Of a stretch of 64,000 nt of DNA, positions 7,841-64,000 are shown in pieces. The number at the start of each line of letters is the position of its first letter. Position 1 is the stretch's first letter. The stretch comes from Podarcis cretensis (Eukaryota). The stretch spans positions 62,000,001 through 62,064,000 of the forward strand of contig OX638156.1 of the NCBI GenBank assembly GCA_951804945.1. Direction: 5' to 3'. Under the pieces are notes generated by a model. It ran no database searches. It was not told the DNA's origin and worked only from the letters and a program-made list of their open reading frames with translations. Position numbers and translations under genes: made by a program.

Positions 7841-8220
7841 NNNNNNNNNNNNNNNNNNNNNNNNNNNNNNNNNNNNNNNNNNNNNNNNNNNNNNNNNNNN
7901 NNNNNNNNNNNNNNNNNNNNNNNNNNNNNNNNNNNNNNNNNNNNNNNNNNNNNNNNNNNNNNNNNNNNNNNNNNNNNNNNNNNNNNNNNNNNNNNNNNNN
8001 NNNNNNNNNNNNNNNNNNNNNNNNNNNNNNNNNNNNNNNNNNNNNNNNNNNNNNNNNNNNNNNNNNNNNNNNNNNNNNNNNNNNNNNNNNNNNNNNNNNN
8101 NNNNNNNNNNNNNNNNNNNNNNNNNNNNNNNNNNNNNNNNNNNNNNNNNNNNNNNNNNNNNNNNNNNNNNNNNNNNNNNNNNNNNNNNNNNNNNNNNNNN
8201 NNNNNNNNNNNNNNNNNNNN
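7841..8220. other. Assembly gap
   Basis: Run of N. Confidence 1.
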
Positions 8221-15725: not shown

Positions 15726-15950
15726 NNNNNNNNNNNNNNNNNNNNNNNNNNNNNNNNNNNNNNNNNNNNNNNNNNNNNNNNNNNNNNNNNNNNNNNNNNN
15801 NNNNNNNNNNNNNNNNNNNNNNNNNNNNNNNNNNNNNNNNNNNNNNNNNNNNNNNNNNNNNNNNNNNNNNNNNNNNNNNNNNNNNNNNNNNNNNNNNNNN
15901 NNNNNNNNNNNNNNNNNNNNNNNNNNNNNNNNNNNNNNNNNNNNNNNNNN
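15726..15950. other. Assembly gap
   Basis: Run of N. Confidence 1.
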
Positions 15951-28601: not shown

Positions 28602-29406
28602 CAGTGGTATCTCGGGTTGTGGTTCGAGGACCCGACCACCGCGACGTGAAAAGAAGACACAGGGACACGTGATATAAGGTTAATGGGCTAGAAAAGGCCA
28701 CAACTTTATTGATTACAGCAATGAAAAGGTATTGGCTTAGGCATTGGATCGCGAAACAAGTGGGTTTATTCACCAGGGGTTCATCACCTGTTGATGCTAA
28801 TCCAACTATAGGCTCACCCCTGCTGTCACCGAGGGTCGTGCCATGGCCTCCCGCCAAGCAGGCATCGGACAGAATACACGACCGCCAGATTCCTTTAACG
28901 GAATACCCCTAAACATTGAAGGCATAGGCGATGGCCACACCTAGCACTTTGACACACCACAGCACATTATTCCAATGCCTAAGCGCCCGACGAAGAGAAA
29001 TGAGGCCGGGGAGAGGCTGACGCTGCAGCATCAAGGCTGCAGGACACGCCCCCCCACGGCACCTGGTTGGACGGCCACCGGGGGGGCGTGAGCGCCAGCC
29101 AGGTGAGCTGGAGCCAGGGGGCAACGCCCCCTGCTAGGGGCGGTGTTCAGGCTCCCGCCCACAACCACTCCCCTCTCTTTCAGGGAGGAGAGTCTTTACA
29201 TACGCTTCAGGTTACAGACTCCACTAACCCAGAAATAGTGCTTCAGGTTAAGAACTTTGCTTCAGGATGAGAACAGAAATCATGCTCTGGCGGCGCGGCG
29301 GCAGCAGGAGGCCCCATTAGCTAAAGTGGTGCTTCAGGTTAAGAACAGTTTCAGGTTAAGTACGGACCTCCGGAATGAATTAAGTACTTAACCCGAGGTA
29401 CCACTG
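28602..29406. mobile_element. Tigger-like MITE interrupted by a 579-bp insertion
   Basis: TIRs cagtggtatctcggg / cccgaggtaccactg with TA flanks. Uninterrupted paralogue at 51244-51487. Confidence 0.9.
28617..29195 (-). mobile_element. Unclassified TSD-less element, copy 1
   Basis: Sits cleanly between ctcggg and ttacatac of the MITE. Reverse-complement homologue with the same termini at 55557-56322. Strand assigned from the AATAAA orientation. Confidence 0.85.
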
Positions 29407-30807
29407 TACATGCAAGGACCAGGAGCTGTCCGTGGGGCCAGTCTAGCACTCCTGCTGGTGTTTTTGCACCATGGCGACCTTGCAGCTGCCTTGCTCCTCC
29501 ACGCTCCCAGTGAGCCCCAATAATGCTGGTGATGGGACGTCAGGTAAGCGCCAAGGACGTTGGTGATGGGAGGTCAGATAAGCCCCAGTGATGCTGGGTT
29601 CTTGCAAGGCTAAAATGAAGAGGGCAAGGACCATGTACTCCACCTTGAGCTCCTTGAAAGAAAGGTGGGATATGAATCAAACAAATGATGAAATAAGAGC
29701 GGATGACTGCCTGGAACCCTGAACAGGAGTGTGCAGTGCTGCAACATCTTGTTGCAGCCCCCAACTTGTATATTTTTAAAGAAACAATATAATCATGATT
29801 TTTATTTTTTAATCCATTTTTAAGCATTTCCCCTTCCTGCCCATTCTCCTTCTCTATTCCGAACCGGAAGCAGGCAGCTCTAGTCTAGCCCCCCAAAACT
29901 CACTGCATTACAGGAGAACTCTCAGAAGCAATCAAGATGCTAGGCTCACCCCATCTGTGGAAAAGGAGGCAGGATTATCTGTCATTTTATACATAAAAAG
30001 AGGAATTAGTAGGGATTGGACACAAGACAGCAAGAGCTCTGAGCTCAGGGTGTGCCCCCTCTCCTTCATATATTATCTGTTTCGTGAACCCATCTTATGA
30101 CTCCATCACAAACCTGCCACTCCAGCCGAGCTCCTCTCCCGTGCTTTATCATCGGCTGAACGTAAAATACACAGTCCCATGAATGCTTTGAGCTGGGGGT
30201 GAAGGGCTATGCTGTGTAATAAAGATAGCTTTTCTAGCAGTGGACATAGTTATTGCTTTGCATCAGACAATGCAAATCATTGCTTTTTATTGCAGGCCTC
30301 CTTTTATTGGACATCGGGGAAAGGAAGGAGATCGTGTATTCTCTACCTACCGCAAACAGTTGTATTGATATTTCAAAAAGGGTGACTAGATGAGTTTGTC
30401 ATTGCAAAGGCCAGCTCCCATATTAACTATTTGGGTTCCAATTGGAATCCCCTTCCCCAAAATTCCTCTGATAGCTATCAAAGTTGTCTTCTTCCTCTTC
30501 CTCCTCTTCTTTTTTTTAAAAAATGGATCATTTTGAAGTGCTAACTAGAATTCCAGCTGCTGCAGGGCAGATTGGAGTGATCTACGGAAAGAATAAATAA
30601 TCCAATACTTAATCCAATACAATACTTAATGCAAACTGAGTGCAGTGTGCTTTTTTGCTGACCGCATTAAACAGCTGTCAAGCAGTCATATTTTATTGTA
30701 TTTCAGGAGTCCAATTAGACTTTTATTAGATGCACACCAGTTTCGTTAGGCAGGCTGTAAATTCCCAGGGTGGTGGGGTGAGATGGGGGTGGGGACACCT
30801 TTTAGTA

Positions 30808-49012: not shown

Positions 49013-50377
49013 CCGACAAGAAATTCAGAGGTCCTTGCTATTATATGTAGTAGTTATTTGGGAAGTAAGAAAAAAAAATGTGTTGTTGGATTCCAACTCC
49101 CATTGGCCCTTTGAGTCACCCAATCACAGTTGCCTTAGTATCCTGCAGTACCTCTTCCTAGTCAGGTGCTTCCTAGTAAGGATGCTCAGGAGCAATTGAA
49201 TGGCAGGTAAACCACCATTGTTTCTACCATAGTTTTTTGTGCTTTGCTGCTGTCACAATTCCAGATGTCTTCTGCTCAGACATACACACATTTTTCTTCC
49301 AGCGACTGAGACTTCTCCTGCTTAATCCAAATAAACAGCCCAGAACCTTTATCATATTTTAAATTCATCTCATTGAACAAACTTGACGAAGCAATATTTA
49401 TGACATTGATAGCACAAGGGGGGTGGAAATGTTAGCAATGCTCAGTTCTTCAATATCCTATTTTCATTTGTTAAAAAAAAAAATTGATCTGGCGAACACA
49501 TTTTATTAAAAGGAATATTTCAGACTTGATTACTGTTCTCTTTGACTGACTGCCTAATTCATGCATGCAGTGTGACTTGGGAAATTACACACAGTAGTTT
49601 GGTAGCTTTATTATGTCACTGTCTGAAAACATTATTTTGCTGAGAGCATAATTAGTCACATACAAAGCTACAGGCCTTTAGACTAATCTCTGCCATCTCC
49701 CTGTGTTAATTATGTGGCTTCCCCCACCCCTCTCTGCAATACACTTTTAGCCCCTAGTCCCTTTAATATATTCTTCCTATTCCTCTCTTTTTTCTTTTTT
49801 ATTCAAAAGAGAATTCAAAAATAAAACAGATTTATTCAGAACATTGCTAAGGAGAGAGGGGAAAAAAAAATCTTTAGAAGCTGTGTCTCCAGATATTAAT
49901 TGGAAAGACCATTGTTAACTGGAAGAAGTTTGACAATTCATTTTCTAGACTTCAGCCAAGTTGAATTATCCAATTTAGAAACCAGACATTTGTTGATTGT
50001 TTTCATTTTTAAAAAGAGAAGGAACTAGGTTACTGAGGTGCAGTGTGGGGTGGCAGGGAGCAGTGAGAACCAACACAATCAAACCAAGGCCTGGTTTATA
50101 ACACAGCCCTGGCCCGCTGGAGGTTTGTTTGGTAAAAGTTTGTTGGGAAAGTGTTTTCTGTGATAAAATCAGCTTAACATTGCTGCTCGGTTTAGGGCAA
50201 ATGATATGACATCTTCCTTTCAAATTGAAGGATCTTTTTTCTCAGCTCCCTGAGGTTATAAAAGTCTCTGCTGGACAGAATGCCCCAAGCAGTCTTTCAT
50301 CATAACATGTTTGCTTAGACAAAACAAAATAAAAAAATTCCTTCCAGTAGCACCTTAAAGACCAACTAAGTTAGTTC

Positions 50378-50419
50378 TTGGTGTGAGCTTTCGTGTGCAT
50401 GCACACTTCTTCAGATACC
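50378..50419 (-). ncRNA. Minimal type-I hammerhead ribozyme, antisense copy with weakened stem I
   Basis: Minus strand GGUAU-CUGAAGA-A-GUGUGCAUGCACAC-GAAAGCUC-ACACC. Same core, one A:C mismatch in stem I. Confidence 0.7.
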
Positions 50420-50425
50420 TTCAGA

Positions 50426-50469
50426 TTGGTATCTGAAGAAGTGTGCATGCACACGAAAGCTCATACCAA
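50426..50469 (+). ncRNA. Minimal type-I hammerhead ribozyme, intact
   Basis: Stem I UUGGUAU/AUACCAA, core CUGAAGA, stem II GUGUGC-AU-GCACAC, GAAA, palindromic AGCU stem III, NUH = CUC. Predicted cleavage after 50462. Confidence 0.85.
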
Positions 50470-50583
50470 GAACTAACTTAGTTGATCTTTAAGGTGCTAC
50501 TGGAAGGAATTTTTTTATTTTGTTTTGACTATGGCAGACCAACACGGCTACCTATCTGTAACTGGATGTTTGCTTAGAGTTTC

Positions 50584-51019
50584 TGTAATGGTTCTAGGGG
50601 GTTGCTCATGCGTAAGTTGCCGCCACTCTTGGCTTGGTTGCCTGGTTGAACCCTTTCTGTCTGGACAGCCCTTCACTTCGTGGCTGTCTCAGTCACTGGC
50701 AGAATCCGTCAGTGGGCGTTTCTTAAACTTCTTCCAGCAAAAAAGTTCTTTGACGCCAAGTCTCCTCCTACTCTCCCTGCGCGGACGTCTTCTGCTCAGG
50801 GAGGGTGTGGGCAGCGGAGTAACCGTGCTCTCCCCACTAGTCTCCGGTGAAGAGTCCTGGAGCCTTTTCTCCGATTCCCCCATCTGCCCCCCTTCTCTCC
50901 TGGTGTTACGTTGATTTCCTTCCCCAGCAGATGGGCTGCCTCTCTCCCTGCTGGGACCCTCTCCAGCATCGCTCTGGAGCCTTCCCTCCGCCTCTGGCTC
51001 TGATGGCAGTTCCCTGACA
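50584..51019 (-). mobile_element. Solo LTR (Gypsy/chromovirus-like)
   Basis: TG...CA termini (tgtaatgg / ccctgaca). Perfect 5-bp TSD gtttc at 50579-50583 and 51020-51024. GC- and CpG-rich. Confidence 0.75.
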
Positions 51020-51243
51020 GTTTCCCTTTGAGTTTTCACTGTTTCCATATTCTTGATCAAAAGAGGGAGAGAAGGTGCTTTCGCTCCTCTTCCCTTGTTA
51101 CTCTAATCTCTGCAGTTTTATTACATCAGAGACAGGGTGGTCTTTATTATTTGTTTGTTAGTTTATTGGATTTATACCCTGCCTTTCCTCCCCACATGGA
51201 GCCCAGGACAGCAAAGGCAACAGCTAAGAGGAAAACCCATATA

Positions 51244-51487
51244 CAGTGGTACCTTGGGTTACATACGCTTCAGGTTCCATATGCTTCAGGTTCCATATGC
51301 TTCAGGTTACAGACTCCGCTAACCTAGAAATTATACCTTGGGTTAAGAACTTTGCCTCAGGATGAGAACAGAAATTGCGTGGCAGCGGGTGGCCCCATTA
51401 GCTAAAGTGGTGCTTCAGGTTAAGAACAGTTTCAGGTTAAGAACAGACCTCCAGAATGAATTAAATACATAACCAGAGGTACCACTG
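51244..51487. mobile_element. Tigger-like MITE, empty paralogue of 28602-29406
   Basis: TIRs cagtggtaccttgggtta / taaccagaggtaccactg, TA flanks, internal ttcaggtt repeats. Confidence 0.9.
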
Positions 51488-51787
51488 TATACACAAAAGT
51501 GAACTTAAATCTCTGAGTCTGCATCTTCAGGGGGTCCAAATGATACCACCCATTTGGGAGATATCAGCAGGTTTGTGGAAAACCGAAGGTTCACAACAGC
51601 ACAAGCAAATCTTTCAGAGAGAGAGAAAATCCCAAAAGAGGAATCTCAAATACAAACTATTAAGAATAGAGTGTCTGATGGGGGCTGGAATGGAGTGTTA
51701 TAGGAAAGGACAAAGCTGGCTGGCCAGCAGCCTGAAGAGGATCACTGCTAGGCCACAGTATGTGACTGAAGAATGCAGCTAGGAGTG

Positions 51788-53817: not shown

Positions 53818-53955
53818 NNNNNNNNNNNNNNNNNNNNNNNNNNNNNNNNNNNNNNNNNNNNNNNNNNNNNNNNNNNNNNNNNNNNNNNNNNNNNNNNNNN
53901 NNNNNNNNNNNNNNNNNNNNNNNNNNNNNNNNNNNNNNNNNNNNNNNNNNNNNNN
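53818..53955. other. Assembly gap
   Basis: Run of N. Confidence 1.
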
Positions 53956-62709: not shown

Positions 62710-64000
62710 CAGTGGTGCCTCGCAAGACGAAATTAATTTGTTCCGCGATTTTTTTCGTCTAGCGAATTTTTCGTCTTGTGAAGCACAAAATCCCATAGGA
62801 ATGCATTGAAAATCAATTAATGCGTTCCTATGGTCAAAAAAAGTCCAAACAAAGCCAAATTTGGTACAAAAAGAGTTTATTAACTGCTCTTTAAAGTCAC
62901 ACATACTGTAAAGAGCATTTCAAAAACTGAAGGAACAATAAATTAAGTTTATAAACATGACAGAAAAACATTTAAAAATCAACAAAGTGTACAGTACATT
63001 TTCTAAGACTCTGGGGGGCCACTCGAAGAAGGCTTCTCTTCCACTCTTTGCTTCTTGCTCAAGAACCTGTCCATAGTCTGCTGCTTCATCCGCCTTTTCA
63101 GCACCTCCCTGAAAGGCGACATGACCGTCGTATCGTAAGTGTTCCCAAGGTCATGTGCCACGTGCTTGTCAGGGTGGTGCCACTCTGCAAAAGCCTGCAC
63201 CTCCTTCCACTTCAGGCAAAATGTCCCTCAGTTGTTTGGAGGACAGCCGTTCCTCAGTTGCTTCCTCCTCTTCCAGCGAGGCCCGCTCCTGCACAGCCTC
63301 TGCCTGCAGTTCGACCAGCTCCTGGGTGGTCAGCTCGTGGTCGTGCTCCTCCACCAGCTCGCAGACGTCCTCCTCTGTGACCTCCAGGCCCATGGTCCTC
63401 CCCAAGGCAACAATGTCCTGCACCACTGTTGACTCTGGTGCATCAGAATCACTTGGTGCCACACAGTCTGGCCACAGGCTGCGCCAAGCGCAATTCAAAT
63501 TTCTCTGGCTGAGCCCGTTCCAGGCCGTGGTGATCATCTTCAAGCAGGTGACAATGTCGAAGTGGTCCTTCCAGAATTCCCGCAGGGTGATGGTGGTGCA
63601 ATCAGTCACCTCGAAGCATCGCCTGAAAAGCTCCTTGGTGTAGAGTTTTTTGAAATTGGCGATGACCTGCTGATCCATCGGCTGGAGCAGTGGCGTGGTG
63701 TTAGGTGGCAGGAACATGATGTTGATGAAGCTGAACTCCTCCAACAAGTCCACCTCAAGGCCTTTAGGATGAGCAGGGGCATTGTCCATCAGAAGCAAAG
63801 CCTTCAGCGGCAGGTCATTGTCCAGCAGGTACTGTTTGACAGCAGGGCCAAAAGCAAGATTGACCCAGTCCACAAACAGCACACGTGTGACCCAAGCCTT
63901 ACTGTTGGATCGCTGCTCCTTGTCCACCTTGTGTCTCTTGAAGGCCCGTGGGTTCTCCGAGTGGTACACCAGCAGGGGCTTGATCTTCAGGTTGCCGCTT
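62710..64000 (-). mobile_element. pogo/Tigger DNA transposon; 3' TIR in the window, 5' part beyond it
   Basis: TA plus TIR cagtggtgcctcgcaagacg at 62710, minus-strand AATAAA at 62876-62881, transposase upstream. Confidence 0.92.
63003..64000 (-). pseudogene. Tigger-family DDE_1 transposase C-terminal half (DD36D), frameshifted
   Basis: Motifs KPLLVYHSENPRAFK, SKAWVT, LLLMDNAPAHP, FLPPNTTPLLQPMDQQVI. Removing one base from the A4 run at 63218-63221 joins ORFs 63169-63969 and 63003-63200. Confidence 0.9.

Follow-up and report, generated by a model that had tools for sequence, protein, structure and literature searches.

Two published descriptions of insertions of Penelope-like elements (PLEs) come close to the locus analysed here. 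Craig et al. (2021) report insertions with an inverted, 5'-truncated copy beside the 5' end and a tail of 30-40 bp that is often present at one end only (PMC8557442), and the examples given by Arkhipova et al. (2013) show head-to-head inverted pseudo-LTRs (pLTRs), one of which bears a tail, and a target-site duplication (TSD) of 8-10 bp (PMC3846280). Schostak et al. (2008) located a 34-bp repeat where the ORF begins (PMC2377424). As to the ribozymes, Cervera and de la Pena (2014) list minimal hammerheads that occur in twos, one on each strand and at a distance of 100-700 bp, and that probably derive from truncated PLEs; such opposite-strand pairs were reported there for Schistosoma, and a single minimal hammerhead showed no detectable cleavage (PMC4209133). 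Dimer cleavage of minimal hammerheads is attributed to PMC5785218 in the review PMC6765202.

The Poseidon element PAc of Anolis carolinensis carries a hammerhead in its pLTR, and its ORF starts at an ATG in stem II (PMC11167929). According to Frangieh et al. (2024), the protein of the anole Poseidon introduces nicks in both target strands and extends them, two internal start sites of reverse transcription (RT) bound the tail, the RNA that serves as template is uncut, the hammerhead cuts only in the presence of the protein, and RNA ends are absent from the cut site (PMC11167929). The animal non-LTR retrozymes are non-coding and PLE-derived and consist of tandem same-strand units with type-I hammerheads, at least two in number (bioRxiv 10.64898/2026.07.22.740005; PMC7229834). 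Finally, Porath et al. (2017) describe lizard Penelope as massively edited, at more than 40,000 sites, and a palindromic Harbinger repeat of the frog as edited without a partner (PMC5625713).

The insert considered here was found in a stretch of 64,000 nucleotides of Podarcis cretensis, the whole of which is referred to as the window. It consists of two short segments, both copied from the end of one high-copy repeat and placed head to head within a 13-bp duplication. An initial annotation, made from the sequence alone, had described a 246-bp insert with two 100-bp inverted arms that differ at 2 positions, a 38-bp tail and a 13-bp TSD, and all of these coordinates were confirmed (Table 1). The insert as such extends from 50320 to 50565 between the two copies of the TSD (ATGTTTGCTTAGA). 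An exact 13-mer at fixed ends has a chance probability of 1.9e-8; in the window there are four pairs of exact 13-mers spaced 200-320 bp, one of which flanks the insert. The two mismatches between the arms are at 50362/50485 and 50383/50464. No other long and close inverted repeat was found in the window (41 shared 20-mers, centred at 50423.5, with one stray 20-mer elsewhere), and neither a second copy of the insert within the 64 kb nor a tandem array at the insert was recovered. The tail likely represents the start region of the ORF of the parent element. The 8-nt centre probably belongs to the direct copy, as sequence upstream of its arm, the alternative being an insert templated at the junction.

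Table 1. Features of the insert and its target-site duplication (positions in the window)
Feature	Position	Strand	Remark
Left TSD, 13 bp	50307..50319	+	13/13 match to 50566-50578
Inverted 5'-truncated pseudo-LTR copy, tailless	50320..50419	-	reverse complement of 50428-50527, 2 mismatches
Minimal type-I hammerhead, weaker copy	50378..50419	-	core at 50414; stem I with A-C mismatch (50383)
8-nt centre	50420..50427	+	starts TTCAG, as in the upstream flank of the family
Minimal type-I hammerhead	50426..50469	+	core at 50433; predicted cut 50462/50463
Direct 5'-truncated pseudo-LTR copy	50428..50527	+	very high-copy repeat in three DNA runs
One-sided 38-bp tail	50528..50565	+	reads MADQHGYLSVT from ATG 50531
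Right TSD, 13 bp	50566..50578	+	identical to left TSD

Two further repeats lie to the right of the insert. A solo-LTR-like repeat with inverted ends TGTAAT...ATTACA (50584-51125) begins 5 bp past the right TSD; the DNA runs introduced below contain multiple copies of its first 130 bp, and a flanking duplication is not evident. A 16-bp tandem of 3.2 copies (51257-51308) opens a repeat at 51291-51489, which is also present at 29196-29408 (84%). Runs of N occupy 7841-8220, 15726-15950 and 53818-53955, which amounts to 743 bases.

Judged by its sequence, the hammerhead motif fits the published consensus for the minimal hammerheads of metazoan PLEs. On the plus strand, a stem I of up to 7 bp is combined with an unpaired A (50440) between CUGAAGA and stem II, with GAAA and with a stem II that constitutes a perfect 14-nt palindrome (50441-50454). 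The initial annotation had called this motif a complete type-I hammerhead. The core, the 7-bp stem I, the cut site and the self-complementary AGCU in the place of stem III all stand, but the 6-bp stem II that had been proposed folds as 5 bp with a 4-nt loop (CAUG), and 'complete' overstates a motif in which helix III is reduced, within AGCU, to a single pair around a 2-nt loop. The same core had been expected on the minus strand from the other arm, and it was indeed found there. When folded in isolation, the plus motif reached a z-score of -2.66 (4 of 200 shuffles were equally good), whereas the minus motif was unremarkable (z -0.14; 75 of 200 shuffles) because of the mismatch in its stem I. 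A comparison with Rfam, which had been put forward as a check, yielded no hammerhead match for the insert; the 28 matches obtained were sub-threshold and mostly generic miRNA hairpins, and the segment 50420-50480 gave 0 matches. Two free copies of the motif are predicted to pair via the palindromic stem II (-42.4 versus 2 x -12.7), in line with dimer-type motifs, and this modelling favours the assignment to the minimal dimer-type class that had been made before. Any single transcript of the insert contains one sense hammerhead only.

The catalytic G12 (50455) is essential for hammerhead catalysis. It is replaced by A in 20.5, 12.8 and 5.3% of the family depth in the three DNA runs, and the genomic copies therefore appear to be decaying. 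Both hammerheads of the insert are predicted to be inherited passengers that are inactive here. The frame from the ATG inside stem II (50447-50563) contains two stops in the insert and is open in three predicted proteins (P0001-P0003), which form a biased sample.

The arm is a very abundant repeat in related animals. In the survey of the family, contigs of three DNA runs and raw reads of one RNA run were placed on 50420-50720, which covers an arm together with the tail and the flank to its right; the samples are runs other than the source of the window, and the contigs, which handle palindromes badly, show presence and not absence. The right arm was recovered, whole or in part, in 21 of the 24 runs listed, with at least half of its words in 14, and these matches carried 9 organism labels. 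The three DNA runs contributed 18,541, 10,435 and 22,937 contigs that matched 50420-50720. The summed depth over the hammerhead (7.3, 2.1 and 1.2 million, versus around 7-240 for single junction contigs) does not equal copy number, and the resulting ratio of family to single-contig depth, roughly 7e4-1.4e5, is an overcount. In metagenome, viral and prokaryote contigs an exact 30-nt pattern gave 0, 0 and 0 hits and a degenerate pattern 1, 1 and 0 loci; both of these loci (L001 and L002) lacked the stems and were discarded as chance matches.

The ends of the family copies are informative with respect to the insert. Among the loose ends listed, copies exit to unrelated flanks at two sites around 38 nt apart, one behind 50525 (58 and 49 contigs) and the other behind 50563 (51 and 72 contigs). 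Both sites coincide with outer ends of the insert, the tailless inverted arm ending at the one near 50525. Because many copies run on upstream of 50429 (95, 85 and 112 contigs and 113 reads, with a common sequence that ends in TTTCAGT), the arm is to be regarded as a fragment of a longer element. In the copies that run on, helix I comprises 4 bp only. Relative to the family majority, each arm has a single change in 100 positions (50485 in the right arm, where 96-99% of the family has G, and 50383 in the left), and the insertion is therefore young. The 5' ends of family copies tend to fall close to the hammerhead. The family sequence upstream of 50429 is pyrimidine-rich and ends in TTTCAG before helix I, which resembles a splice acceptor; the intron of Drosophila virilis Penelope is described to end at the 5' end of helix I (PMC4209133).

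Considering the above, the insert is very probably a dead insertion of an endonuclease-bearing PLE, with both copies 5'-truncated and the hammerheads as passengers, and its layout is ordinary and published. That it should be identified as a truncated Penelope-like stub is, if anything, a shade more certain. The initial annotation had already proposed a Penelope-type origin, and this proposal is supported by the type of hammerhead, the layout of the tail and the two end sites of the family. An RT or GIY-YIG ORF that could be linked to the repeat was found neither in the stub nor among the 296 frames of at least 62 amino acids in the window that were compared with Pfam. A 40-amino-acid read-through query led to three candidates for a link to an RT (P0001-P0003), all of which were short unnamed frames with no significant domain. 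A named PLE that matches the family was not encountered in the literature consulted, and a search for the family's motif in the supplements of PMC4209133 and PMC8557442 gave no exact hit.

For the insertion we propose the following route. The GIY-YIG endonuclease would nick the two target strands 13 nt apart, and each nicked end would prime reverse transcription, starting at one or the other of two internal sites that lie 38 nt from each other, which would yield one arm with and one arm without the tail. Both cDNAs would pass through the hammerhead, stop a few bases upstream and then be joined head to head, so that the centre would be formed anew at each insertion. Because both arms span the cut site, the RNA that served as template was uncut.

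The most serious alternative accepts the same element and differs in the way in which the arm was copied twice: a single reverse transcript would fold back, or an antisense template would prime itself, with the hammerhead stems as the fold-back point. We consider this a real contender, though somewhat short of an even chance, and the choice between two-strand priming and fold-back is about even. Self-priming has been proposed for head-to-head Penelope repeats (PMC3846280). The junctions of the family copies vary. Among 15 junctions listed, 4 join opposite strands (50429/50444, 50431/50512, 50431/50513 and 50444/50519). In a second table, of which 12 of the 40 junctions were listed, 11 run from a higher to a lower place, with 11 different pairs at a depth of 79-581; this table does not specify the kind of joint, and two joints from 50563-50564 may be tandem. 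Those listed include joints of 50441, 50447, 50453, 50466, 50469 and 50512 to 50428-50429, and further ones are 50482/50447, 50496/50465 and 50515/50435. In favour of self-priming, 8 of the 12 have one side at 50428-50431, one junction contains re-copied pieces of the arm between its sides, and the centre of the insert (50420-50427) repeats 50410-50416. Nevertheless, the clustering at 50429 is partly an artefact, as the reference leaves the commoner upstream sequence at that position. Moreover, DNA folding indicated that a cDNA that ends at 50429 pairs back on stem I with a probability of only 0.00-0.18, and a simple fold-back alone leaves unexplained why the ends of the arms coincide with the two end sites of the family.

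The sequence of the predicted proteins bears on the same junction. P0003 reads S-L-V-S-E-E-V, versus R-L-V-S-E-E-V in the window and F-S-V-S-E-E-V in P0002. This reading of P0003 makes it probable that there is a subfamily with a longer helix I, and likely that the 8-nt centre represents the copy's own upstream sequence. That the three extra bases TTG in stem I arose at the junction is made less likely by P0003, which resembles a second copy with the same bases, and by the weak fold-back of the DNA.

The initial annotation had gone further and suggested that the unit, should it recur with the same centre and ends, would be a non-coding retrozyme-like family. A non-autonomous, self-propagating foldback family of this kind, moved in trans by the Penelope protein, now seems very unlikely. 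It is true that non-autonomous retrozymes can originate from the termini of PLEs (bioRxiv 10.64898/2026.07.22.740005), that both outer ends of the insert are preferred throughout the family, and that one centre recurs: the joint 50429/50444, the commonest, was present in three organisms (10, 5 and 4 contigs) and in 3 RNA reads. However, the insert's own centre was absent among the 15 and 12 junctions listed, the other centres vary and occur near single-copy depth, and the recurrent one accounts for 0.02-0.07% of the family depth, thus less than 0.1%. There is in addition no tandem array and only one hammerhead per strand, whereas the animal retrozymes are described as tandem same-strand repeats. 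P0002 reads through another foldback copy, which is independent and has a different centre: its inverted arm extends at least 15 nt further upstream, and around 23 unrelated codons lie between this arm and the direct one. Variable palindrome centres had been named beforehand as the observation that would speak against a self-propagating unit. The centres do differ, both in P0002 and among the contig copies (in which palindromes are poorly handled), and by that yardstick there is no such unit.

The recurrent joint 50429/50444 could be a hotspot, a copy within another repeat or a small propagating subfamily. For this fixed-centre subset one might conceive of a non-autonomous foldback carried by the Penelope protein, in which the fold of the hammerhead and not its cutting sets the point where copying stops, and which keeps seeding hairpins of a size fit for ADAR or Dicer that damp the parent element. 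We regard this as improbable, although by a trace less so than a foldback family that includes the insert.

Given its inverted arms, the insert should dominate the folding of any RNA that crosses it. For the plus strand, the predicted hairpin has -193.6 kcal/mol, versus -128.2 kcal/mol with the hammerhead forced, a gap of 65 kcal/mol. The arms were predicted to pair with a probability of at least 0.96 at every transcript prefix tested, and stem I to form with a probability of 3.6e-37 once the plus motif is complete (transcription at 50469); on the minus strand the latter value was 9e-40. Burial of both motifs in the duplex in any read-through RNA is thus a sound prediction, and the folding agrees with the initial suggestion that, on both strands, the antisense arm traps the ribozyme in a 100-bp duplex. 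The designation 'self-silenced ribozyme' on the other hand reads too much into this. Single minimal hammerheads showed no detectable cleavage when assayed in the literature (PMC4209133, PMC11167929) and hence leave little activity that could be silenced, and the label implies a function beyond what the data support. A host RNA that crosses the insert would fold into a 100-bp duplex and become an ADAR substrate as a side effect, devoid of function.

This brings us to the RNA itself. The RNA run provided 743 reads, which stem from many loci and from a fragmented single-cell library with the same organism label as one of the DNA runs, although from a different individual. Among the 27 variable positions of the element that were listed, 11 reached at least 5% in RNA while staying below 1.3% in all three DNA runs. 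Nine of these lie in the arm, 7 of which are A>G (50476, 50480, 50491 and 50492; 8-18%) or T>C (50434, 50464 and 50474; 7-9%). The A>G changes were commoner on plus reads at all four sites (134/875 versus 80/845) and the T>C changes on minus reads at all three (33/547 on plus versus 56/555 on minus), a bias with a sign-test value of 0.016 for sites that share reads. The two remaining RNA-only variants of the arm, G>A and C>T, occur at similar levels, and A>G at 50528 is biased in the opposite way. The excess of 7 out of 9 was non-significant (p 0.09), as was the comparison of the kinds of change between RNA and DNA (p 0.25 and 0.65), and the neighbour test for editing (no 5' G) gave p 0.30; the signal is therewith weak on three of the four tests. 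The suggestion that the insert serves as an ADAR substrate thus meets with an editing-like signal in the RNA of the family, read from many loci and not from this insert, and with mostly non-significant tests. It is suggestive that the variants represent A-to-I editing at the level of the family, in agreement with the published result for lizards. The private change of the left arm (50383) coincides with the editing-like RNA site 50464 T>C; this is a single transition and may be chance. No pile of read ends was observed at the cut site 50462/50463 in the 743 reads, which for a fragmented library is a weak test.

That the host has retained the insert as a regulatory RNA, either a deliberately silenced ribozyme or a hairpin gene for small RNAs, is hardly credible. 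The hairpin is very stable and there are sub-threshold matches to Rfam miRNAs, but the latter are generic hairpins that stay under the gathering scores, the arms differ from the family majority at only 1 in 100 positions as in a young insertion, and the locus shows no sign of conservation. In addition, no host exon was found among the 296 stop-free frames of at least 62 amino acids in the window that were compared with Pfam, a search which shorter exons, UTRs and non-coding RNA would escape. The sole Pfam match above the cut-off in the window was a DDE_1 transposase (63172-63999 on the minus strand; a 276-amino-acid open frame, E 1.6e-28), which reaches the end of the window. Equally far-fetched is a foldback DNA transposon or a MITE that ends in terminal inverted repeats; the insert is indeed short, palindromic and flanked by a TSD, but has asymmetric ends with a 38-bp tail on one side, an arm that belongs to a longer element, junctions that vary and a PLE-type hammerhead.

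The preferred reading, a doubly truncated PLE insertion, makes the insert a remnant of a mobile element with a layout described before; as a single locus it is of little consequence. In common with the published PLE insertions it has a head-to-head inverted copy, a one-sided tail (38 bp here) at the start of the ORF, a TSD and a variable inverted length; unlike these, both copies are cut down to around 100-146 bp and no body of the ORF is left. The TSD of 13 bp compares with 8-10 bp in the rotifer examples of PMC3846280. Among the hammerheads in the supplement of PMC4209133, the closest is that of Chrysemys picta, with CUGAAGA and a bulged A, G10.1-C11.1, GAAA and a palindromic AGCU at helix III, a motif that is not marked there as PLE-associated. 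The bulged A before stem II is usual in Penelope minimal hammerheads and present here too, and the 4-bp helix I of the commoner subfamily is likewise as in PLE minimal hammerheads (PMC4209133). The perfect 14-nt palindrome of stem II and the 7-bp helix I of this copy, on the other hand, set it apart from the PLE minimal hammerheads with which it was compared.

With respect to PAc (PMC11167929), the insert has an ATG in stem II (50447) as well, 119 nt before the end of the tail, where RT in PAc starts 111-118 nt into the ORF; the distance from the cut site to the ATG is 16 nt here versus 26 in PAc, and the likeness is one of layout. The outer ends on two preferred end sites and the uncut arms fit the two-strand priming that was shown in vitro for the anole element, and the insert may therefore serve as a clean, young example of how PLEs build head-to-head ends. 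Like the retrozymes (bioRxiv 10.64898/2026.07.22.740005; PMC7229834), it is non-coding, PLE-derived and provided with a type-I hammerhead; unlike these, it constitutes an inverted pair with one hammerhead per strand. Finally, the family and the edited lizard Penelope of PMC5625713 can be likened by kind alone, both being self-folding repeats, ADAR substrates in the published case and predicted ones here. The layout offers a structural reason for the heavy editing of Penelope in lizards, where it ranks with the most edited LINE-class repeats, in that many insertions would be ready-made hairpins.
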